Source of the DNA: Burkholderiales bacterium
GTDB lineage: Bacteria; Pseudomonadota; Gammaproteobacteria; Burkholderiales; JAEUOS01
Assembly: GCA_031423955.1 (NCBI GenBank)
Contig: JANPGJ010000547.1
Location: 5,449-69,448, forward strand
Direction of reading: 5' to 3'
DNA: 64,000 nucleotides
Below are positions 25,426 to 59,687 of the stretch, piece after piece. Numbering within the stretch: the stretch's first letter is position 1; the number at the start of each line of letters is the position of its first letter. The notes beneath the pieces are model-generated. The model was given only the letters and a program-made list of their open reading frames with translations, was not told the origin of the DNA and did no database searches. Made by a program: the position numbers and the translations under genes.

Positions 25426-26436
<1,011 letters not shown>

Positions 26437-47872: not shown

Positions 47873-49545
47873 ACGCAGTGTTGCAACCCGCTGCCGGCGA
47901 CATGCCGGTCAGTTTCGAGACCGATCCGTCGCGCTACCGCCACTGGAAGCTTGCAGCCGAAGGCGAGATCGCCCGCCTGACGCTGGACATTCGCGAAGAT
48001 GGCGGCATTCGCCCCGGCTACCAGTTGAAGCTCAATTCCTATGACCTCGGGGTCGACATTGAGTTGAACGATGCCTTGAACCGCATCCGTTTCGAGTATC
48101 CGAACGTCAAGACCGTGATCCTCGGGTCTGCCAAAGACCGCATTTTCTGCTCCGGCGCCAACATCTACATGCTGGGCCTGTCGACCCACCAGTGGAAAGT
48201 GAACTTCTGCAAGTTCACCAACGAGACCCGCAACGGCATGGAAGACTCGTCACAGCATGACGGCCTGAAGTTCATCGCGGCGGTCAATGGCGCCTGCGCC
48301 GGCGGCGGCTACGAGGTGGCGCTGGCCTGTGACCGCATCTATCTGGTCGACGACCGTTCTTCCACCGTCTCGTTGCCGGAGGTGCCGCTCCTGGGCGTGC
48401 TGCCCGGCACCGGCGGCCTGACCCGCCTGATCGACAAGCGTCGCGTGCGGCGCGACCTGGCAGATATTTTCTGCACCACCTCCGAAGGCGTGCGCGCCGA
48501 CCGCGCGTTGAAATGGAAGTTGATCGACGGCCATGCCAAACCGGCGCAGTTCGCCGACTACATCAACGCCCGCGCGGCTGAACTGGCACAGGGCAGCCGG
48601 CGCGCCAGCGGCGCCACCGGCATCGCCCTGACCCCGCTCAACAAGACCATCGATGGCGCCGGTTATCACTATGAAACGGTGGCTGTGGTGATCGACCGCG
48701 ACGCCCGGGTCGCCACCCTGACCGTGACGGCGCCGGCGCAGGCGCCGGAGGCCGACCCGGCGGCGATCCACGCCGCCGGTGCGAACTGGTGGCCGTTGAA
48801 ATTCGCGCGCGAACTCGACGATGCAATCCTGATGCTGCGTACCGCCGACCTCGAGATCGGCACCTGGGTTCTCAAGACCCGCGGCCCGGCCGCCGGCATT
48901 CTGGCGATGGATACGGTACTGCAGGCGCAGGGCGCACACTGGCTGGTGCGTGAAACCGTCGGTCTCCTGCGGCGCACGCTGGCGCGCCTGGATGTGACCT
49001 CGCGCAGCCTGATCGCGGTGATCGACGAAGGCTCGTGCTTCGCCGGCACGCTGCTCGAACTGGCGCTGGCCGCCGATCGCAGCTACATGCTTGACCTGGC
49101 CGACGGCGACGGCTCGCCGGCGATCGAGTTGTCGCCGCAGAATTTCGGCGCCGACCCGATGGTCAATGGCCTGACCCGCATCGAAACCCGCTTTGCCGGC
49201 GACGCGCATGAGATTGCGGTGGTCAAGTCCCTGCAGGGCCAGGCGATCTTCGCGCGCGCCGCCGCCGACGCCGGCCTGATCACCGTGGCGCCGGACGACA
49301 TCGACTGGGCCGACGAGATCCGCATGGTGATCGAGGAGCGTGCATCGCTGTCGCCGGATGCGCTCACCGGGATGGAGGCCAGCCTTCGCTTCGGTGGCCC
49401 GGAGACCATGGAAACCCGGATTTTCAGCCGCTTGTCCGCCTGGCAAAACTGGATTTTCCAGCGCCCCAACGCGGTCGGCAGCGATGGCGCGCTCAAGGTT
49501 TTCGGCAGCGGGCGCAAGGCGAAGTTCGACTGGCAACGCGTTTGA
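47869..49545 (+). CDS. boxC: 2,3-epoxybenzoyl-CoA dihydrolase (benzoyl-CoA-dihydrodiol lyase)
   Basis: 558 aa with a crotonase-like N-terminus (YRHWKL...LKLNSYDLGVDIELNDA...FCSGANI). It lies immediately before boxB. Confidence 0.85.
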   Translation: MNAVLQPAAGDMPVSFETDPSRYRHWKLAAEGEIARLTLDIREDGGIRPGYQLKLNSYDLGVDIELNDALNRIRFEYPNVKTVILGSAKDRIFCSGANIYMLGLSTHQWKVNFCKFTNETRNGMEDSSQHDGLKFIAAVNGACAGGGYEVALACDRIYLVDDRSSTVSLPEVPLLGVLPGTGGLTRLIDKRRVRRDLADIFCTTSEGVRADRALKWKLIDGHAKPAQFADYINARAAELAQGSRRASGATGIALTPLNKTIDGAGYHYETVAVVIDRDARVATLTVTAPAQAPEADPAAIHAAGANWWPLKFARELDDAILMLRTADLEIGTWVLKTRGPAAGILAMDTVLQAQGAHWLVRETVGLLRRTLARLDVTSRSLIAVIDEGSCFAGTLLELALAADRSYMLDLADGDGSPAIELSPQNFGADPMVNGLTRIETRFAGDAHEIAVVKSLQGQAIFARAAADAGLITVAPDDIDWADEIRMVIEERASLSPDALTGMEASLRFGGPETMETRIFSRLSAWQNWIFQRPNAVGSDGALKVFGSGRKAKFDWQRV

Positions 49546-49564
49546 ACCATTTGAAGGAATTTCC

Positions 49565-50992
49565 ATGAGCACGATCGACCTGAACGCACGCATTCCCAAC
49601 AACGTCAACCTGGTGGCCGATCGCACGCTGCAGCGCGCGCTGGAACATTGGCAACCCGCTTTTCTCGACTGGTGGAAGGATATGGGGCCGACCGATTTTC
49701 TCTCTTCCGACGTGTACCTGCGCACCGCCACCGGGGTCGACGCCGCCGGCTGGGCCACCTACGGCACCTGCAAGATGCCGGACTACCGCTGGGGCATCTT
49801 CCTGGCCGACCCGGAAGCCAACCGCAGCATCGGCTTTGGCGACCACATCGGTGAACCGGTGTGGCAACAGGTTCCGGGTGAATATCGCTCGACGTTTCGG
49901 CGCCTGATCGTAACGCAAGGCGATACCGAACCAGCGTCGGTCGAGCAGCAGCGCCTGCTCGGCCACTCCTGCCCGTCGTTGTACGACCTGCGTAACCTGT
50001 TTCAGGTCAATGTCGAGGAAGGCCGCCACTTGTGGGCCATGGTCTACCTGTTGCATGCCTACTTCGGCCGCGACGGCCGCGAGGAAGCCGAAGAATTGCT
50101 GATGCGTCATTCCGGCGATGCCGACAAGCCGCGCATCCTCGGCACCTTCAATGAACCGATCGATGACTGGCTGTCGTTTTTCATGTTCACCTACTTCACC
50201 GATCGCGACGGCAAATACCAGCTGAAGAGCCTGGCCGAATCGGCCTTCGATCCGCTGGCGCGCACCACCCGCTTCATGCTGACCGAAGAGGCGCACCACA
50301 TGTTCGTCGGCGAAACCGGCATCGGTCGGGTGGTACGGCGCGCGCTGGAAGTGATGAAGGAACTCGGCAGCGACGACCCGGCCGCGGTGCGCCGCGCCGG
50401 CGCGATCGACCTGCCGACGGTGCAGAAGTACATGAATTTCTGGTTTTCCTCGGCGCTCGACCTGTTCGGCTCGGAGTCCTCGTCGAATGCCGGTTCGTAC
50501 TTCGCCAACGGCATCAAGGGCCGCCCGGACGAGGCGAAATTCGCTGACCATCGCGAGATCGATACGGTCTACACCTTCCAGGCGCCGGATGGCGCGGGCG
50601 GCGTGAAAAGCGAGGAAATCGCCATGCGCAACGCGATGAACGCGGTGACGCGCGGCGAATATGTCAAGGATTGCGAAATCGGATTCAAGCGCTGGAACAA
50701 GCTGATCGAACGCGCCGGTTTCAGCTTCGAGCTCAAGCTGCCTTCCGACCGCTTCCATCGCACCATCGGCGCCTGGGCCGGCATCGCCACCGACCTGGCC
50801 GGCAACCCGATTGCCAAGGAGGCTTACGCGGCGGTGTGCAATTCAGCGCTACCGTCGGAAGACGACCGGCGCTTTGTCAAGAGCCTGCAGCAGCGGGTGG
50901 TTGAGCCGGGCAAGATGGCGGCCTGGATCGCACCGCCGGATCGCGGCATCAATAACCTGCCGGTGGATTACGAATACGTGCGACTGAACTGA
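49565..50992 (+). CDS. boxB: benzoyl-CoA 2,3-epoxidase subunit BoxB (di-iron oxygenase)
   Basis: The ATG at 49565 gives MSTIDLNARIPNNVNL...WQPAFLDWWKDMGP. EEGRHLW and EEAHHMF are the di-iron ligand motifs. Confidence 0.9.
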   Translation: MSTIDLNARIPNNVNLVADRTLQRALEHWQPAFLDWWKDMGPTDFLSSDVYLRTATGVDAAGWATYGTCKMPDYRWGIFLADPEANRSIGFGDHIGEPVWQQVPGEYRSTFRRLIVTQGDTEPASVEQQRLLGHSCPSLYDLRNLFQVNVEEGRHLWAMVYLLHAYFGRDGREEAEELLMRHSGDADKPRILGTFNEPIDDWLSFFMFTYFTDRDGKYQLKSLAESAFDPLARTTRFMLTEEAHHMFVGETGIGRVVRRALEVMKELGSDDPAAVRRAGAIDLPTVQKYMNFWFSSALDLFGSESSSNAGSYFANGIKGRPDEAKFADHREIDTVYTFQAPDGAGGVKSEEIAMRNAMNAVTRGEYVKDCEIGFKRWNKLIERAGFSFELKLPSDRFHRTIGAWAGIATDLAGNPIAKEAYAAVCNSALPSEDDRRFVKSLQQRVVEPGKMAAWIAPPDRGINNLPVDYEYVRLN

Positions 50993-51261: not shown

Positions 51262-51801
51262 CTAGGAAGTCGAGTCACCGGCATCAACCGGTGCCTGTGG
51301 CGCCGCCTGGCCGTTTTTGCGCAGCAGCACCCGCGTCGAATACTCCAGTACGGTGACCGCATGCTGGTTGATCACCCTGATGCCCAGGGTGAGCACGCCG
51401 CGCAACCCGTCCGAGGTTTCCTTTGCGGCAATGACGCTGACCTCGGAGCCGAGCGTATCGCCCGGCCGCACCGGCGCGTGAAAGCGAAACCCGTCCATCG
51501 CCAAGCCGGCGATCGTGTTGGCCCCCAGCACGCTCTCAAGCATGCCGGCCGACACGCTGCACACCAGAAATCCGGGCGCGATGCGTCCGCCATGCGGTGA
51601 TTCGCGCCTGGCCCAGTCGTCATCCACGAAGATCGGCAGGCGCAACCCGGCGAACTGGGTGAAACTGACCAAGTCTGCCTCGGTGACGGTACGGCGATAG
51701 GTGGTGAATACCTCGCCGACGACGAAGTCCTCGAAGCCCGGGGCATGGACGGCGGATTTCAATTGACCCCCAAGCCAAGCGATTTCACCAACGTCGACCA
51801 T
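51262..51801 (-). CDS. MaoC family (R)-specific enoyl-CoA hydratase/dehydratase
   Basis: Hot-dog fold pattern: TVTEADLVSFTQFAGL..PIFVDDDWA......GRIAPG.L. Confidence 0.8.
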   Translation of the reverse strand: MVDVGEIAWLGGQLKSAVHAPGFEDFVVGEVFTTYRRTVTEADLVSFTQFAGLRLPIFVDDDWARRESPHGGRIAPGFLVCSVSAGMLESVLGANTIAGLAMDGFRFHAPVRPGDTLGSEVSVIAAKETSDGLRGVLTLGIRVINQHAVTVLEYSTRVLLRKNGQAAPQAPVDAGDSTS

Positions 51802-51881
51802 TTGTCGCTCTCGCGCCGAACTTGCGCGGCAAACGCATCGGGGCCGGCAGGGTCTATTTCGGTGCCGCTTTTTTCAACCCG
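51755..51881. repeat. 127-bp direct repeat, left copy (bug 3' end + maoC 5' end)
   Basis: It aligns base for base with 59438-59564. Identity is highest from GACCATTTGTCG to TTTTTTCAACCCG. Confidence 0.75.
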
Positions 51882-52748
51882 CTCGCGCACCGGCGCATGC
51901 TCGAGGGCACGAACCACCGCATCCGCCAGGCGGGTCAGGATCTCGCGCGGTGTGCCGGCGGGAGCGACGAAGCCGTACCAGACACTGGCTTCGTAACCTG
52001 GTTGCCCAAGCGCTTCAGCCAGGGTTGGAATTTCCGGTGCCTGCGGCAGGCGGCGCGGGCTGCCGATGCCGAGAATGCGCAGCTTGGCCGCGCGCATTTG
52101 CACCAGCGCCGGCGGCAGGGTCGAAAAGTACAAGGCGACCTGGCCGCCGATGGTGTCGGTCATCGCCTGCGCCGTGCTCTTGTAGGGAATGTCCTGCAGC
52201 TTCAAGCCGGCGCTTTGCGCAATCAGTTCCATTTCGAGGTGACTGGGTGTGCCCTTGCCGGACGAGGCGTAATTGAGGCGGCCCGGGTTCGCGCGCGCGA
52301 ACGCGATCATCTCGCCGACGCTGGCAAAGGGTGCGGCCGGGCCGGTGACCAATGCCATCGGCAACACGCCGATTCTGGCGATCGGTGCGAAATCGCGCAC
52401 AGCGTCGTAAGGCGGCGCGGCCTGCAACAACGGCGCGACCACCAAGGGGTTGGCGGCCATCATCAGTGTGTATCCGTCAGCCGCGCTCCTGGCCGTGGCG
52501 GTCGCGCCGAGCAGACCGCCGGCGCCTTCGCGATTCTCGACCACCACGCCGACCCCGAGTTGCTCGCCGATCCGCTCGCCGACCACCCGCGCCAGGATGT
52601 CAGTGCCGGTGCCTGGCCCGAAGGGCACGATGATGCGGATCGGTTTCGACGGGTATGGCTGCGCGACCGCAGGCGCACTACCCACAGCAGCCAGCGCAGC
52701 CAGTGTCGCCAGTGTCGACCAGACGGTCATGCCGATGCGGCATTTCAT
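51759..52748 (-). CDS. Bug family tripartite tricarboxylate transporter substrate-binding protein
   Basis: The signal peptide is followed by PYPSKPIRIIVPFGPGTG. 329 aa. Confidence 0.85.
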   Translation of the reverse strand: MKCRIGMTVWSTLATLAALAAVGSAPAVAQPYPSKPIRIIVPFGPGTGTDILARVVGERIGEQLGVGVVVENREGAGGLLGATATARSAADGYTLMMAANPLVVAPLLQAAPPYDAVRDFAPIARIGVLPMALVTGPAAPFASVGEMIAFARANPGRLNYASSGKGTPSHLEMELIAQSAGLKLQDIPYKSTAQAMTDTIGGQVALYFSTLPPALVQMRAAKLRILGIGSPRRLPQAPEIPTLAEALGQPGYEASVWYGFVAPAGTPREILTRLADAVVRALEHAPVRERVEKSGTEIDPAGPDAFAAQVRRESDKWSTLVKSLGLGVN

Positions 52749-52903
52749 TTCAGGCGCCGTTCGCGCTGCGGGTAGTTGTAGGCACTTTTCCCAGACGTAT
52801 CGACAGCTTAAGCGGCGAAGACAAAGGCGGCACCCCGTGTTCAGTTACAAATTTCCGTAGAGGCACATTTTCTGCGGTGCTCCTGAAGAAATCAATTCGA
52901 TCC

Positions 52904-52931
52904 CGCCCCCTTTTTTTCGCCCCCTTTTTTT
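52904..52931. repeat. tandem 14-mer CGCCCCCTTTTTTT x2
   Basis: Two perfect adjacent copies in the AT-rich spacer at the low-coordinate edge of the Rhs island. Confidence 0.8.
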
Positions 52932-53028
52932 GCTCGTTAGGAGTGCGAAAGTCAATGCGCGCGCCTTTCCCGTCCTTATTGTCGCGCCACTAATGTCGAA
53001 ATATAAGAAGTTGCTACTCGTGCGCGTT

Positions 53029-53709
53029 TCAAGTCGGGAGGCCCAATTTACTCCGCCAAATCAAAATGACTAAATCATAGAGTGTGTGAGCGATGATTAT
53101 TGGCCAAAGATTGCGCAGTAGCACATACATCACCGCCGCAGAGCAGCCGAAAAAAAGCAGTGTAAAGATATCGGCAATATTGGAAATACTATGGATGCCA
53201 AGGAATGCGAAGGACGACACGGACACATAGAGGCCGACATCAATCACCCGACGTTTCTTGAGGAAAACCACTCCGAGAACACCGCGAAAAAATATCTCTT
53301 CAAATACACCAGCGGACAAAGCATGATAAATAACGGCTGCTAGTCCTCCACCCCGAGCGAGTGCATTCGCTTGGCTCCTTGTCATCTGACCCGCTTCAGG
53401 CACGTAATTTTCGACAATGTTGAAAACTATAACTGACGCAAGAAAAACAAGCGTGCAGATAAAGCTGATCGAGACGAATTCCCCCCACGTATATCCACCT
53501 CGAGTAAACCTGAGGCCGTACATCTCCGGACTTACCCCAATCCGGTAGAGCAGCAGAAGGCATAAGATGGGAACAATGACTTTCAGGAAAACATCAACAA
53601 TCCAATAAACGAGATCAATCGTCGGCGGTAGAAATTCTCGAGCAATGACCGGTAGTAGCAATGCTGGCAATGCCGTGCCAAGAACAGTCAATCTTAAGGG
53701 GAGCGACAC
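53029..53709 (-). CDS. CPBP family intramembrane glutamic endopeptidase (Abi/CAAX-protease type); candidate Rhs immunity protein
   Basis: VFEEIFFRG, FLGIH and AHTLYD form an intact CPBP motif triad. ~6-7 TM segments. The gene is AT-rich, and its start overlaps the Rhs 3' end by 16 nt. Confidence 0.8.
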   Translation of the reverse strand: MSLPLRLTVLGTALPALLLPVIAREFLPPTIDLVYWIVDVFLKVIVPILCLLLLYRIGVSPEMYGLRFTRGGYTWGEFVSISFICTLVFLASVIVFNIVENYVPEAGQMTRSQANALARGGGLAAVIYHALSAGVFEEIFFRGVLGVVFLKKRRVIDVGLYVSVSSFAFLGIHSISNIADIFTLLFFGCSAAVMYVLLRNLWPIIIAHTLYDLVILIWRSKLGLPT

Positions 53710-56700
53710 TCGTCAACTCCTCTCCTGAGTGGAAGACTTGCTCGACGCCCCGAACTTGTTGAACCTTTGGCAGGCTGTGGAGGATTCAGACGGTCAAGGA
53801 TCCTTTGGGCCTGACGCAGCGGATCTCCCAACATACTATCGGGGCTGCCCGTTGCACCATCTGGCAGTGGAATTAGCGGCAGTCGAGGCTCTGGAACGTT
53901 CGGTAGAGGAGGATCGTAGTCACGTCCAACCTTGTTTACTGCATCCTGGTCACGCTTCATCTGCCGTTCGTATTTATCCACTTCAGCTTCACAAGCGGGA
54001 TCGCCTTGGTCTTGCGCGCAACGCGGATACGGCACAAAGTGGTACGGCCCGAGGCGCGGGCTATCGAGTCCCCGTGGATCGATTCTCGATAGCGGATTTG
54101 CCATGACATAGGTGTATGTATTGATCCCGCCCGCCAACCCGATGGGATCAGATTGCACATACCGCCCCGTCCTCGGATCGTAATCCCGGAAGTAGTTGTA
54201 ATGAAGTCCAGTCTCCGCATCAAAGTACTGTCCCGGGAACCGCAATGGAAAACTAAAGCGCAGTCCGTTGCCGTCAGGATCATCATTTGGCGGCAGGTCT
54301 CCAAACGGGTCAGAATCCCACCGCCAAATCGTCGTGCCTGCTTGGCTACGCACCGCTCTTGGAGTATTCAAATGGTCCGTATCAATCGTATAAACAGAAC
54401 TTGCATCTGCCGGTAGAAATTTGACGGCGTCCGCAACGACAACCCCATCTGCGCTATCCGTAAGCGTTACTTTATGGCCCGCCCCGCTGATGAGCGTAAA
54501 ACTTCCGAGAAACACCCACTGGCCGCTTCGCTGTTTTTGGTTTACAACGACGCTTGTGACGCCACCCAAATGAGAAACTTGGTACGTGGCGTTCGTCGCA
54601 CGGTCGGTGTTCGAAACCCAACGAGCGTAGACGTTGTAGCCCCCACTGGGAAGGCTGGATGGGGCCCAAGTTGCCGAATTCGCGCCTGTACCGGCGGCCC
54701 GGTACAAATATCCTCCACCAAGCGCGTCACTCCCTGTTGTGGACGACCATGTTCCTGCCACGCTAAAGCCAGTACCGCCGTTGTCGATGACCGAGGGATT
54801 GTCTGCAAGCACGGCAATCGGAATGTCACCCAGATAAACATACTCACGAATGGCTGAACTACCCTGATAGTCGCCAATCAAGCGTCCTTGTTCATCATAG
54901 GCGTAGTCCGTGTTGGCATAGTTATTGGAGTACCCGCCGATCTTGTTTACACGCTGGCCCAAGCCATTAAATTGGATCTCCTTGATATAGTTGCTTGGAT
55001 ACGATGTGAACATCGTGTCGACAAACGTTGAAATCCGGCCGCTATCGTCATACGTAAACGTACGCCCTCCCAGATTGACAGCATTTCCTGCAGCGTCATA
55101 AGCAAACGTGCTCGCCGGTACCGGACCGGCGCTGCTCAACAATCGATTGCTGTTGGCAGCAGTGGTGTAGTTGTAGCTATTTACCCCGATCGATAGGTTA
55201 GTCCGATTGCCATTCGCGTCGTAGGTATAAGCACGCGACGTGTTGCTTGCAACGAAGCCTGTGACTCGATCAAGGTCGTCGTAAGAAAATATCTGAATCG
55301 AATTGACCGGGCCATCATTAATCTGTGTAATGCGATCCGCATTGTCATAAGTGACAGTGCGTGTGGCGCCACCAACCGGATGAGTGCGCATTCTGCCGTC
55401 AGCATCAAAGGTTCGCGATGCAACAGTTGAATTTCCCCAGACCCAAGCCTTTGGCTGGCCAAACGGGTGCCATGTAATGCCACTCACAATCGAGGTGTTG
55501 TCAATACTCAATGCGGATACGCGGCCCGCGAGATCATAGGTATATCTTGCTGTTCGGCCAGACGGGTAGACCATTGATACAAGTCGGCCAGCCGCGTCGT
55601 AGCCGTAAGTCGTGACAAGCAACCCACCACCGTAGGCCTTCGTTTGCCTCCTGCTGGTGACACGCCCCTGAAGGTCGTATGTCCATGCAGTCGTCCCGCT
55701 GGAATCGACCAGGGTCGTCAGGCGACCTTTGCCGTTTGCCCCTTCGTCATACCGAAACGTGTCGATCTTCGTACCGCTGGCCCCGCCGTAACGCTTGGTC
55801 AAAACGCGATTCAACGCGTCATACGTATAGATCGTTGTCTTTCCGCGAGCGTCGGTGCTGGTTGCCACGTTTCCAGCGGCATCGAATGTGCGCGCAGTTG
55901 TCCCGGTATCCGGACTGACTTGTAGGGTGGCGTCACCCAGGCCGGTCATGGTGTAGTTGGTGACAAGATTGCGCGGATCGGTGACGCGGGTTAGCTGATC
56001 CTGCCCGTCATAGCCATAGCTGATCACCGGATTCGGCTGATTGGCGCCGGGACTGGGCTGCGTGACCGCGACGAGTCTGTTTAGAGCGTCGTAGGCGTTG
56101 GTGGTCATGCGGTTGAGCGGATCGTTGACCATGATCAGGTTGCCCTGGGGGTCATACGTGTAGCTGGTCGTCTGATTCTGCGCACCGATGCTCTGGACCA
56201 TGCGATTGAGCGCGTCGTACACGCGGCTACGGGTTTGCGCCAGCGCGTTGGCTGGGTCGAATACCTCTTCCTTGGTACGGTTGCCGCGCAAATCGAGCGT
56301 GTAAACGATGCGATTGCCGAGGTTGTCGCCAATGCTCGTCATCCGGTGTGCCGCGTCATAGCCGTAAGTGACAAAGGAATTGTCGGGTAGCGTGGCCTTG
56401 ATGAGTTGGCCGACAGGGTCGTAGTCGTAAACCGTGACTTCGCCGCCGACATTGCGACTCTTCAGGCGTTGGCGGCTGTCATAGGTCAACTGCGTGGTGA
56501 GCCCGTTCGGATCGACGACGGTGAGTGGCTGACCGTGCGGGTTGCACGACGTGATCTGAGTGACGTGACCAAGCGCGTTGGTGACCGACGCAACATTCCC
56601 GCGCCGGCCGATTTCGCTGTCGGTGCTTGGGTAATAGGCATAGGTCGTGATGTCGGCCACGTCTGTGCGCGGTCCATTTGCGCTCAGAACCTGGCCAACG

Positions 56701-58973
56701 GTATCGTAGGTATAGGTCCAGGTACGCGCGGTACCCGTTGGCGGCGCTGCCAATCCCAGAGCGCCGGTGGCATCGGTAGTGGCCTGGATGGTCTTGGTGA
56801 GGACGTTGCCGCGATCGCCGGGGTTGCTTGCGGTAGGGGGGCCATACGTGTAAGTTGTGACCCGCAATGGTTCCGCCACCTTGGTCGGTTGCCGCCAATC
56901 CGCTGACCATTCGGTGCTGATCATTCGCGCAGGCGCAGCAAGCACAGGGGTTCCAGCAATCATCGACGCACAATCGGTCGATCCAGACAGGCCTTCGATT
57001 CGGCGCGTTTCTAGCTTGCGATTCAGGTCGTTCGCGTAACACGTCTTGTAGCCGTTCCAGTTAACTCGACTGGCGACATTGCCGCCGGAATCATAGGTTG
57101 TGGCGCTGTTGGCGCCACAACCCAGGCACGGCGCCGAAATACCGGTCAACCGCACCATTCCAAGCTGGACCGCAAACCCGAACGTGCGAGTCGTCGTTGT
57201 AGGCGCAGTCGAAGCCCCTTGGGTGTACGTTACGCTGGTTTGTCCTGCAGCAGGCGAGTCGTAAGCGAAGGCGATTTTGTCGACCCCTCCGGCATGCTCG
57301 GTTGACGTTGCGCGCCCTTGGCAATCGTACTTGTAGGTTGAGTACCGCTGCCCGTTCTCGTCGGTGATCCCGGTCAGGTGATTGACGAGATGCCAATTTG
57401 TCAGGCCATACGCGGATATACCGGGGCAGGCAGCGCCATTATTGATGTTGGCAACTTCGTTGTAGTGATAGATGCGGGATTGCCCATCTGGAAATGTCAC
57501 TCTGGTGAGATTCTCCGCGTCACAAAAGTACCTGGATGCGCCTGTGGTGCAGCCGCCGGAAGGCCCGTTATGTTCGTATGTGAAAACACCTGCGGCCGCA
57601 TCAGCGATCTTTATCACACGAAACGCGGCGTCATACTGCAGATTTATCTGCCGACCAAACGGGTCAGACACGCACATCAACTGCGGACGGTTTGGCGGCA
57701 CAATAGCTTGACCTGTCGCATCCAATTGATGCGCCCAGGCGTTCGGACCCACACATTGAGGGGGTACATATTCGGGCGGATGCGGGACCCCGACCGTAGT
57801 GGGAGACGCGCTGGAGTAGTACATTTGCCCCGCGCCGTCTGAATAACCGAGGCGCGTCACCAACCCTTGACGATCGCTGATCTGCAGCAATGAGCCATAG
57901 AGATCGTAGAGCTCTACCGTCTCGCCATCTTCTGCAATGAGCTTCCACCCCTGGACCGTGTTGCCCGACACCACGCCAACCAACTTGTCGGCGATATCCG
58001 AATCAGGTACCCACGGTCCGGCCAAGTTGCCCTGCGCGGCAATCGACAAGAAAAAACGAATGATCCTGCCGTCCGGCCTGCTCGCCGTCATCGTGCTGCT
58101 ACCCTGAAATTGATCCAAATCGATTCGTCTCTCAAAATCGAACACCCATTTGGACCTGCGGATGGAAGGCGCGCTCGAGTTGTAGGTTCGTCGAATCGCC
58201 AGTCCTGTTGCGTTCACCGGAGCGGCATCGGTTTCGATTTGGTACTTGTTTCCGGTACCTGAGTTGACCGGATTGCCCTGCCCTTGGCATGGAGCGCCTG
58301 GTGGGCAGGGACCACCATTCTTGCCAGGATCTGGCACGTTCGAAGCGCAGAAAAAATTCCCGTTCACGTCGAATGAGGGGTACGTTCCCTGGTCGCAACG
58401 CCGAGCGGTAATTCCGATCAAGCCCGAGGAAAAACCATCCCAAGTTGATGCGGGATCATGGCTAATTCTGCATTGCGTGGCGTTTTCGTATATCGGGTAG
58501 TACGTCGCGACCCCCGAACTGCTCAATATTCCTCTGCCACCAGTTGGATACAACTGCCAAAACCCGCTAGTGCAAGCGGTCGAGGGCGAGCCGTAGATGT
58601 AAGGCCAGCCAAATTTATCCGGATAACCCCCAGGCGCGAAACTGAATATGTCGTAGCCCACGACGTAGGCTGGGGCATTTGCAGAAAACGCTGAACCAAA
58701 CACCACGCACAGGAATGCGCAGTAGCGGATGCCTCGCAGACGAATCTGGCGATTCGATTGGATGAATACCCGCTCAACAATCAGCCTCAATAGCGATAGG
58801 AACGTGGGTCGGCTACGATCGGCAGGGGAACGCCTTTCGGTCGCCGTTGAACCGCCAACCCCTCTTCCCATTTGAAAGAAGTTCGACGAAGTTCTCAGTC
58901 GCACGCTTTCTGACATAACGGCCTCAAGGCAAAGCGCACGCCGCTGGCGTTGGAGCAAACCCGCGTCGAACAC
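53694..58973 (-). CDS. RHS/YD-repeat polymorphic toxin (1759 aa from GTG; real start uncertain)
   Basis: Dozens of YD repeats (YxYDxxGR/N). Entry motif [17 protein letters not shown]. Core end [33 protein letters not shown], followed by a 123-aa tail. Signal-like segment [19 protein letters not shown]. Confidence 0.9.
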   Translation of the reverse strand: [1759 protein letters not shown]

Positions 58974-59226
58974 CCGTGACCCGGCTAAGTCCGTCGCGAA
59001 ATTGGCAACGGCAATATGCGTCGACGTCGCAATATCGCCATCAGTTCAATGCAGGGCACGCGTGATTCTTGTTAAGGGAAGATCACTCGATAATTTTTTT
59101 CTAAAATCCGCTGCCTGTCAATCGATATCTTGATTGGGACAAGTTTTCCGGATAAGCCACGGGCAACCCGACTTTGCTCCAGTGCCAAGACTACGCAGCA
59201 AGTATTGGCAGTAGAGATCAAGCGCG

Positions 59227-59313
59227 TGGTGCCCGGGGCCGGAATCGAACCGGCATGGCCTTGCGGCCGGCAGATTTTGAGTCTGCTGCATTTACCTATT
59301 TCGCCACCCGGGC
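59227..59313 (-). tRNA. tRNA-Leu (anticodon CAA)
   Basis: The reverse complement reads GCCCGGGTGGCGAAATAGGTAAATGCAGCAGACTCAAAATCTGC CGGCCGCAAGGCCATGCC GGTTCGATTCCGG CCCCGGGCACCA. It has a long variable arm and a 7-bp acceptor stem. Confidence 0.9.
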
Positions 59314-59437: not shown

Positions 59438-59564
59438 GATTTCAATTGGCCTCCAAACGGTGCGCGCTGACCAAGGTTGACCATTTGTCGATCTCGCGCC
59501 GGATTGGCGCGGCAAACGCATTGAGGCCGGCGGGGTCTGTTTCGGTGCCGCTTTTTTCAACCCG
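59438..59564. repeat. 127-bp direct repeat, right copy (bug relic 3' end + first ~16 codons of a maoC-like gene)
   Basis: The minus strand reads MVNLGQRAPFGGQLKS..., versus MVDVGEIAWLGGQLKS in the intact maoC. Similarity stops at 59438. Confidence 0.75.
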
Positions 59565-59687
59565 TCCAAGTGTGTCGGCCAGGGCTGCAACCTCCGATGC
59601 TTGCGACAGGGCCGAAAAATGCAAGACAAGCTGAGCGCCCGATGCCGCCAATCCATGCCGGAGTGCAACACCGATGCGAAATTTCAT
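59442..59687 (-). pseudogene. Bug family receptor relic with large internal deletion
   Basis: The 81-aa ORF joins a Bug-like N-terminus (MKFRIG...) directly to a Bug C-terminus. That C-terminus is RVEKSGTETDPAGLNAFAAPIRREIDKWSTLV, versus RVEKSGTEIDPAGPDAFAAQVRRESDKWSTLV in the intact gene. Its start overlaps the CoA-transferase stop. Confidence 0.65.

Follow-up and report, generated by a model that had tools for sequence, protein, structure and literature searches.

A Sec-type Rhs gene with an orphan 123-residue tail and a CPBP-family membrane protease as its candidate immunity gene in a Burkholderiales bacterium

Immunity to Rhs, contact-dependent inhibition (CDI) and polymorphic toxins is almost always provided by a small protein that binds the toxin one-to-one. 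In Rhs effectors belonging to type VI secretion systems (T6SS), such as Tse5/Tsi5, a short cargo of the Rhs cage meets its antidote in an inner-membrane protein whose gene lies just downstream. Polymorphic toxins dependent on Sec and the type II secretion system (T2SS) have already been catalogued (Zhang et al. 2012, PMC3482391, Table 1), and a role in self-immunity to bacteriocins has been proposed for the polytopic Abi/CPBP proteins (Kjos et al. 2010, as that work is cited in PMC3578759). Here we describe a two-gene locus in a stretch of 64,000 nucleotides from a Burkholderiales bacterium (assembly GCA_031423955.1, contig JANPGJ010000547.1, positions 5,449 to 69,448; the whole stretch is called the window, and positions are given in its numbering), in which an Rhs/YD-repeat gene ending in an orphan tail of 123 amino acids is followed directly by a gene for a CPBP/Rce1-like membrane protease.

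Like the Sec/T2SS-class Rhs toxins (PMC3482391) and the WapA-type signal-peptide Rhs proteins of Gram-positive bacteria, the Rhs of this locus has an N-terminal signal peptide, a shell of RHS/YD repeats, a conserved core with DPxGL at its end and a tail that varies. An adjoining downstream cognate gene, the lack of T6SS genes nearby and the presence of orphan cassettes in relatives (contig L034) are further points in common. The locus differs in that its tail is an orphan, largely unstructured and non-enzymatic-looking, in that the downstream gene is predicted to encode a catalytic intramembrane protease and not a small binding protein, and in that a Golvesin_C domain is inserted in the shell. 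The T6SS Rhs effectors resemble it in combining an Rhs cage and a short cargo with a membrane protein gene just downstream, whereas here PAAR, VgrG and chaperone are absent, the cargo is not of the Gly-zipper or hydrophobic kind, and the immunity candidate belongs to an enzyme family. What is known in this locus is the Sec-type polymorphic Rhs toxin, and what is new is an orphan, largely disordered cargo with an intramembrane protease in the immunity position. In the literature we found no description of a CPBP protein that confers immunity in Rhs or polymorphic toxin systems; a Morganella survey of 2026, where CPBP genes are listed under “miscellaneous” in the T6SS effector/immunity table, was the one related publication. 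Based on comparison with related loci, we tentatively favour a cognate toxin/protection pair with the CPBP as the putative immunity factor, because the CPBP sits in the immunity slot of its Rhs clade, co-evolves with the tail, travels with Rhs tips and stays intact beside a decayed Rhs.

When 5.8 billion proteins were searched, only three clusters of CPBP homologues were obtained, at 98%, 61% and about 42-45% identity, and all three directly follow an Rhs core end, so the adjacency is not a matter of chance. The 98% copies (contigs L001 and L002) lie downstream of the same tail, the 61% copies (L003 and L004) lie downstream of a diverged tail with the same 16-nucleotide overlap, and the about 42-45% copy (L005) comes after a fragment of an Rhs core with a Gly-rich tail of unrelated sequence. 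These are three lineages, all on short metagenomic contigs except the window locus. The next-closest CPBPs, at 30% identity, are flanked by NUDIX and SCP2 genes in the vicinity of nadA, and no Rhs gene lies close to them. Between the window and L003, the proportion of non-synonymous differences (pN) is similar in the CPBP gene (0.228), the tail (0.257) and the adjacent Rhs core end (0.308), and the proportion of synonymous differences (pS) is saturated at 0.68-0.75, which indicates that the unit has co-diverged over a long time. Gene order and the 16-nucleotide overlap have been kept between the two loci despite this saturation.

The initial annotation had proposed a new toxin/immunity pairing that could be checked by the co-variation of tail type and CPBP gene. 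Much of this holds: the two genes are linked and co-diverging, the CPBP occupies the immunity slot, the only diverged homologue of the tail also has a CPBP, and the close CPBP clade is Rhs-linked throughout, CPBPs without an Rhs gene being only the ~30%-identical ones in housekeeping contexts. However, the about 42%-identical CPBP of L005 follows the unrelated Gly-rich tail, so the pairing is not strictly one-to-one. The Rhs fragment of L005 reads ...DPIGLRGGLNTYAYVR, an in-frame TAA and then KPLTFVDVDGLW, with DVDGL instead of DPxGL, and L005 resembles an orphan cassette in decay whose CPBP is still intact. In the same contig (positions 1-485), the Gly-rich tail ORF extends 104 nucleotides past the likely CPBP start (ATG 382).

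Judged by family comparison, the Rhs protein of the window is a member of a Sec-type polymorphic toxin clade with no T6SS link. A search with the full-length protein returned relatives at 35-45% identity, all consisting of DUF6531, RHS and TEN_YD-shell, and in 17 of 17 aligned relatives mutually unrelated tails follow the conserved DPxGL. Most of the 17 have an N-terminal hydrophobic region (h-region) and an AxA-type site, such as AAAYA/VD, LSFA/VT and FVNA/DT (the slash marks the site). Six relatives (P0007, P0008, P0012, P0014, P0015 and P0023) stand alone, each with a different small gene downstream at a spacing that ranges from an 8-nucleotide overlap to a 12-nucleotide gap, and no vgrG or T6SS neighbours were found near these six. 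The downstream genes are extracytoplasmic in four of the six, encoding signal-peptide proteins (P0007 and P0014), a polytopic membrane protein of 131 amino acids (P0008) and an 86-amino-acid protein with two transmembrane (TM) segments (P0023), and the other two (P0012 and P0015) encode soluble proteins. Downstream of P0023 on L034 (7598-10153) come genes for two small polytopic membrane proteins, then those for an orphan toxin with a Tlde1 domain and its lipoprotein-like partner, and lastly another orphan Rhs tip, so that the Sec-Rhs clade has here an array of orphan cassettes of the classical kind.

The start of the window Rhs gene is uncertain, with GTG 58973, ATG 58916 (GAGG 5 nucleotides upstream, 1740 amino acids) and TTG 58790 as candidates, of which ATG 58916 is the probable one. 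Public gene callers also disagree, one (Logan) giving ATG 58916 and 1740 amino acids and the other an internal ATG that deletes DUF6531. The best 12-residue hydropathy window of the leader scores 2.33, and the cleavage-type sites after the h-region are AFS/AN or ANA/PA, the Pro at +1 disfavouring ANA/P. From this h-region and cleavage-type site a cleavable N-terminal Sec signal peptide is predicted, which is the mark of the Sec/T2SS class. The Sec-like leader reported in the initial annotation is thus real and agrees with the clade, but it is not new, since the Sec-dependent class is already in PMC3482391. The Cys-rich region behind the leader is unalignable and hypervariable across the clade (A4 segments), which makes the Rhs family polymorphic at both ends and not in the tail only. 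A model of this N-terminal domain based on a multiple sequence alignment was dropped because the region is unalignable across the clade.

The shell repeats were matched by PF05593 RHS_repeat (1.4e-70) and TIGR01643 (9.3e-55). Golvesin_C is also present in the nearest relative, P0007, and L003 has a different insert in the same position. For the lectin-like inserts of RHS arrays a part in target contact has been proposed (PMC3482391); the Golvesin_C insert may be of the same kind, and it may be a surface-displayed target-binding module. The core end agrees with the clade consensus NPxxxxDPxGL (A4), the Leu codon CTC being at 54066-54068, and the protein thus carries a PxxxxDPxGL-type autoproteolysis motif at which cleavage is predicted. 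Neither PAAR, VgrG, Hcp and Tc domains nor SpvB/TcdB mid-type domains were detected in the Rhs protein with Pfam, and no large TcA-type neighbour gene is present in the window. In agreement with the initial annotation, no T6SS, TcA or TcB genes were found among the ten largest otherwise unassigned ORFs of the window (small ORFs were not all scanned); these ten encode transporters, CoA-pathway enzymes, a sigma factor and similar proteins, or have no Pfam match.

Searches of Pfam (also with all three tail variants), NCBIfam, PADLOC, PDB sequences and plasmids gave no match to the tail, not even when a profile of three sequences was used, and a word-indexed homologue search with it returned nothing. 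An exhaustive HMMER search of 1.84 billion cluster representatives returned the tail itself, one real relative (P0005/L003, 64% identity) and one spurious repetitive protein, which leaves the tail with a single diverged relative in about 15 billion proteins. No similarity to the tails of L005 or P0015 was found. Hydropathy analysis gave no hydrophobic window and no membrane-type amphipathic segment, and a single-sequence AlphaFold2 (AF2) prediction gave helices at residues 23-48 and 81-93 with coil elsewhere (predicted local distance difference test score, pLDDT, 61.6; predicted template modelling score, pTM, 0.25). Judging from these properties, the tail does not look like an enzyme or a pore-former. 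The boundaries of the tail (53697-54065), the Leu codon at its border and its unassignable character were all reproduced on re-checking, whereas the proposal that the target or the neutralisation step lies in the membrane is weakened for a tail with no hydrophobic or amphipathic segment and no confident fold.

Compared with L003, the tail has a pN of 0.257 and a saturated pS of 0.684 (pN/pS about 0.38), and by this comparison it is under purifying selection and is not junk. Its last 18 non-overlapped codons, which make up the most conserved block short of the final Cys, contain 10 synonymous and 2 non-synonymous differences (pN 0.052, pS 0.63). A nucleotide-level constraint on this C-terminal block (ribosome-binding site or RNA structure) was considered and rejected; given so many synonymous changes, and a Shine-Dalgarno (SD)-like sequence that differs in L003 (AGAAAAGGGG) and is thus not kept, the block is conserved at the protein level. 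It holds RRASLP, a PKA/14-3-3-type motif, and a Cys at -4, the tail ending in CRSP in the window and in CAYP in L003. By the specificity of prenyltransferases these are not canonical CaaX boxes, as a1 and a2 are non-aliphatic and X is Pro. The tail accordingly lacks the aliphatic end of a CaaX substrate, and no further gene (prenyltransferase) is found in the island. The overlapping GTG start leaves no choice in the codon of this Cys (GAG TGY), and its conservation therefore does not count as independent evidence.

Two kinds of fusion between the Rhs and CPBP genes were also considered. A 32-nucleotide duplication (Rhs frame SLPLRR, CPBP frame SLPLRL) was rejected as chance, the codons being different (AGT CTT CCA CTC AGG versus TCG CTC CCC TTA AGA). 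A -1 ribosomal frameshift at the site C-CCU/C-UAA was judged unlikely, because the CPBP gene starts at a conserved GTG of its own behind a strong SD, and because a polytopic membrane protein would make an implausible cargo for the cage.

The protein encoded by the downstream gene scores 49.7 bits on PF02517 (E 4.8e-13), for which the curated cut-off is 22.4, and its gene overlaps the Rhs gene by exactly 16 nucleotides (53694-53709). The motifs EEIFFRG, FLGIH and AHTLYD are intact, and the size, overlap and motifs given in the initial annotation were all confirmed. Residues E137, E138, R142, F169, H173 and H208 are invariant in all four CPBPs (alignment A1), the position +4 after H208 being D or N, and multiple TM segments are apparent from hydropathy. 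A profile search against PDB sequences gave no match, and nothing close was found among GTDB genomes and plasmids. An AF2 model from a 4-sequence alignment (pLDDT 44.1) was too poor for Foldseek or for a structural argument. The protein falls below the NCBIfam equivalog cut-offs for MrtS (32 bits against 130) and MrtJ (20.6 against 75). In L003 (1504-1641) and L004 (1133-1270), an extra gene overlaps the CPBP stop by 4 nucleotides; it is partial (46 amino acids seen), has a TM segment and is absent from the window.

The CPBP proteins of class II bacteriocin loci in Gram-positive bacteria, as described by Kjos et al. 2010 (cited in PMC3578759), are likewise polytopic PF02517 proteins with EExxxR, FxxxH and HxxxN/D motifs, encoded beside a toxin gene, and the proposed protection of the producer is a further likeness. 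In contrast, the host here is a high-GC Gram-negative bacterium (TctC/Bug and TRAP-transporter gene content), and the cargo is a hydrophilic Rhs tail of 123 amino acids and not a small hydrophobic GxxxG-type peptide; the Gly-rich-tailed variant of L005 is a closer likeness, though different in sequence. The MrtX myxosortase, MrtS and MrtJ (PMC11980579) share with our candidate that they are Gram-negative CPBPs linked to the C-terminus of a Sec-exported protein with an invariant Cys near its end. Their sorting substrates, however, carry a tripartite tag of Cys motif, TM helix and Arg-rich end (PMC11980579), whereas here three residues follow the Cys with no TM helix or Arg-rich end, and there is a protease per substrate, not one per genome for dozens of substrates. 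PrsW-linked polymorphic toxins (PMC3482391) also tie a membrane-embedded peptidase of the same superfamily to a polymorphic toxin. PrsW is fused N-terminally and is proposed as an export or release device (PMC3482391), while here the CPBP is a separate protein, encoded downstream of an Rhs with a signal peptide and an autoprotease of its own.

On the reading that we favour, the two genes form an operon. The first gene would encode a Sec-type polymorphic Rhs toxin, as family comparison indicates, and the protein would be exported to the periplasm via the Sec signal peptide predicted from its sequence and from the clade. The YD-repeat cage, in which the autoproteolysis motif is observed, would then free the 123-residue tail inside it, and after release the hypervariable Cys-rich N-terminal domain and Golvesin_C would probably engage target cells. 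Because the tail is orphan, hydrophilic, Pro-rich and largely unstructured, with a conserved C-terminal block of 19 residues, a binding or inhibitor-type toxin seems likelier than an enzyme or a pore-former. The second gene, translationally coupled to the first, would encode an inner-membrane CPBP glutamic-type protease that protects the producer at the membrane surface, where it would cleave or trim the tail coming in, in analogy with the Abi/CPBP proteins of Gram-positive bacteriocin loci. The conserved catalytic motifs, whose residues are kept across about 40-60% sequence divergence, suggest that such protection would be enzymatic. Immunity to a disordered, non-enzymatic Rhs cargo through proteolytic destruction or trimming by an active intramembrane CPBP, and not through stoichiometric binding, is possible but doubtful; we found no account of such a mechanism for any Rhs or polymorphic toxin system.

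Several points weigh against the CPBP as an immunity factor. The tail has no hydrophobic segment or confident fold, unlike the membrane-active peptides linked to Abi proteins, and the route by which a hydrophilic tail would reach an intramembrane active site is hard to see. The pairing of an about 42%-identical CPBP with an unrelated tail in L005 puts the specificity in doubt, and the sample is tiny, consisting of three lineages, all of them on short metagenomic contigs except the window locus. In bacteriocin loci, some CPBPs serve in processing and not in immunity (SilX, PMC9298176), and the AF2 model of the CPBP (pLDDT 44) gives no structural support. Both toxicity and protection are predictions from comparison.

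The strongly conserved C-terminal block also keeps alive the main rival account, which we regard as unlikely: the CPBP could be a maturation, processing or release protease for the tail, recognising the block GRRASLPLR[RK]GVDEC-xxP and trimming or cleaving it. Its models are CaaX processing by Rce1, MYXO-CTERM cleavage by myxosortase, pheromone processing by SilX and the toxin release proposed for PrsW. Such a role is an equally conventional job for the enzyme family (PMC11980579, PMC9298176, PMC3482391), as the known bacterial CPBP roles are mostly in processing (MrtX, PMC11980579; SilX, PMC9298176) and for PrsW-type relatives the release of polymorphic toxins has been proposed as a function (PMC3482391). 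Conserved catalytic motifs and translational coupling of the two genes would also suit a processing enzyme, and the extreme C-terminus is the most conserved part of the tail, with the Cys at -4 in both variants (CRSP and CAYP). That Cys, however, is dictated by the overlapping GTG, and a tail that has neither a TM helix nor an Arg-rich end does not represent a sorting tag of the CTERM type; the MrtS and MrtJ scores given above are far below their cut-offs as well. The other Rhs clade members examined are without such a protease, and a Rhs tail is expected inside the cage, inaccessible to a membrane protease, from the established structures of Rhs and Tc proteins. On L005, moreover, the intact CPBP stands beside a decayed Rhs and an unrelated tail without the C-terminal block, a state to be expected for an orphan cassette of toxin tip and immunity gene but not for an enzyme dedicated to maturation.

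It is improbable that the island holds no more than a non-toxic or decayed remnant of a tail, with an unrelated CPBP gene hitch-hiking as a passenger. True, no toxin fold or family can be recognised in the tail, the module is found extremely rarely and the island has no other accessory genes; against this stand the purifying selection on the tail (pN/pS about 0.38, with pS saturated), the pN of 0.052 in its C-terminal block, the preservation of the 16-nucleotide overlap and gene order across saturated synonymous divergence, and the Rhs linkage of every close CPBP homologue. We consider it very improbable that the Rhs is directed at eukaryotic cells, with a disordered tail acting by short linear motifs (PxxP, RRASLP and the Cys at the CaaX position) and a CPBP that is not immunity. 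Sec-type Rhs/YD proteins do occur in eukaryote symbionts and pathogens, the tail is Pro-rich with no confident fold, and RRASLP and the Cys at -4 are present in both of its variants. Yet CRSP and CAYP are non-canonical CaaX boxes, an RRxS is met by chance about 1 in 10 times in a tail with 14 Arg and 8 Ser (a rough estimate from composition), and the features of the clade are antibacterial, namely the Tlde1 orphan cassette, the membrane or periplasmic immunity-like genes and the orphan tips. An attack on eukaryotes would also leave no role for a tightly coupled, co-evolving CPBP.

If the toxin/protection reading is true, an enzyme in the immunity slot would represent a logic of self-protection different from one-to-one binding. 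Proteobacterial Rhs would then be linked mechanistically to the Abi-type bacteriocin immunity of Gram-positive bacteria, and the locus would offer a tractable Gram-negative model for the long-standing question of how Abi/CPBP proteins protect against bacteriocins. An orphan, unstructured cargo of 123 amino acids under purifying selection hints at a toxin of the binding or inhibitor type and not at an enzyme. Since the module is present in three lineages of about 15 billion proteins, its importance would be mechanistic and not ecological.

Table 1 Positions of the features of the Rhs-CPBP locus in the window
Feature	Position	Strand	Basis or remark
Rhs/YD-repeat gene	53694..58973	-	Uninterrupted longest ORF, 1759 amino acids from first GTG
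Signal-like leader, hydrophobic core	58686..58724	-	13 residues, then SANA; read from sequence
Cys-rich N-terminal domain between leader and DUF6531	58278..58682	-	N-terminal segment comparison, alignment A4
DUF6531 domain, residues 233-307	58053..58277	-	Pfam PF20148, 3.4e-09
YD-repeat shell	54792..58052	-	Pfam RHS_repeat, 15 stretches; TIGR01643, 9 stretches
Golvesin_C insert, residues 1395-1519, just before core	54417..54791	-	Pfam PF25275, 4.1e-32
Rhs-associated core ending DPRGL (autoproteolysis-type motif)	54066..54416	-	TIGR03696 (Rhs_assc_core), 3e-23, residues 1556-1636
Orphan tail, 123 amino acids	53697..54065	-	Pro-rich (20 Pro); net charge 0; coil apart from two predicted helices
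Most conserved tail block, GRRASLPLR[RK]GVDEC-type, 19 residues	53706..53762	-	Cys four residues from C-terminus
Shine-Dalgarno-like AGGAGAGGAG	53717..53726	-	7 nucleotides upstream of CPBP GTG
CPBP/Rce1-like polytopic membrane protease gene, 226 amino acids	53029..53709	-	PF02517
Distal cassette edge with perfect tandem 14-mer CGCCCCCTTTTTTT x2 (52904-52931)	52893..52931	.	Repeat family D10
Sigma-70-like promoter candidate TTGACA-17-AAAAAT, upstream of Rhs	59093..59121	-	Consensus scan, 10/12; consensus match only
tRNA-Leu(CAA), border on 3' side of low-GC insert	59227..59313	-	ARAGORN; Rfam RF00005, 57.3 bits

The two genes make up a horizontally acquired cassette beside tRNA-Leu. Both are AT-richer than their surroundings, as initially annotated, with a GC content of 0.47-0.58 against 0.62-0.68 in the flanks, and the GC content at third codon positions is 0.61 in the Rhs gene and 0.49 in the CPBP gene against 0.75-0.86 in host or neighbouring genes. 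Homology of 97% to the metagenomic contigs L001 and L002 ends at 52893, where the tandem 14-mer lies, so the foreign segment is ~6.3 kb long; this low-GC insert (52893-59226) contains the Rhs and CPBP genes only. We detected neither an integrase gene nor an att-like direct repeat at the insert, and an att-type repeat of the tRNA 3' end, looked for at the far island border, was not found there either. L001 (1041-3253) represents a related strain, in which the genes behind the CPBP copy of 98% identity are one that resembles an ORF6N antirepressor, a fragment with Rhs repeats and a PIN-domain toxin whose small partner lies upstream of it. The region downstream of the cassette is therefore variable.

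Some further observations were made in the surroundings of the insert. Adjoining the tRNA, an ORF of 81 amino acids (59442-59687, minus strand) resembles the C-terminus of a TctC/Bug periplasmic binding protein and looks like a gene remnant; an intact gene of this kind is present at 51759-52748 (minus strand). In a neighbourhood of CoA-ligase and enoyl-CoA hydratase genes, an ORF of 550 amino acids with good coding bias (49340-50992, plus strand) has no Pfam match at 1e-5. The GAPDH protein encoded at 25438-26433 (plus strand) is a singleton at 90% identity in a collection of 15 billion proteins, and its locus has no close counterpart in GTDB species representatives, which indicates that the window comes from a poorly sampled lineage.

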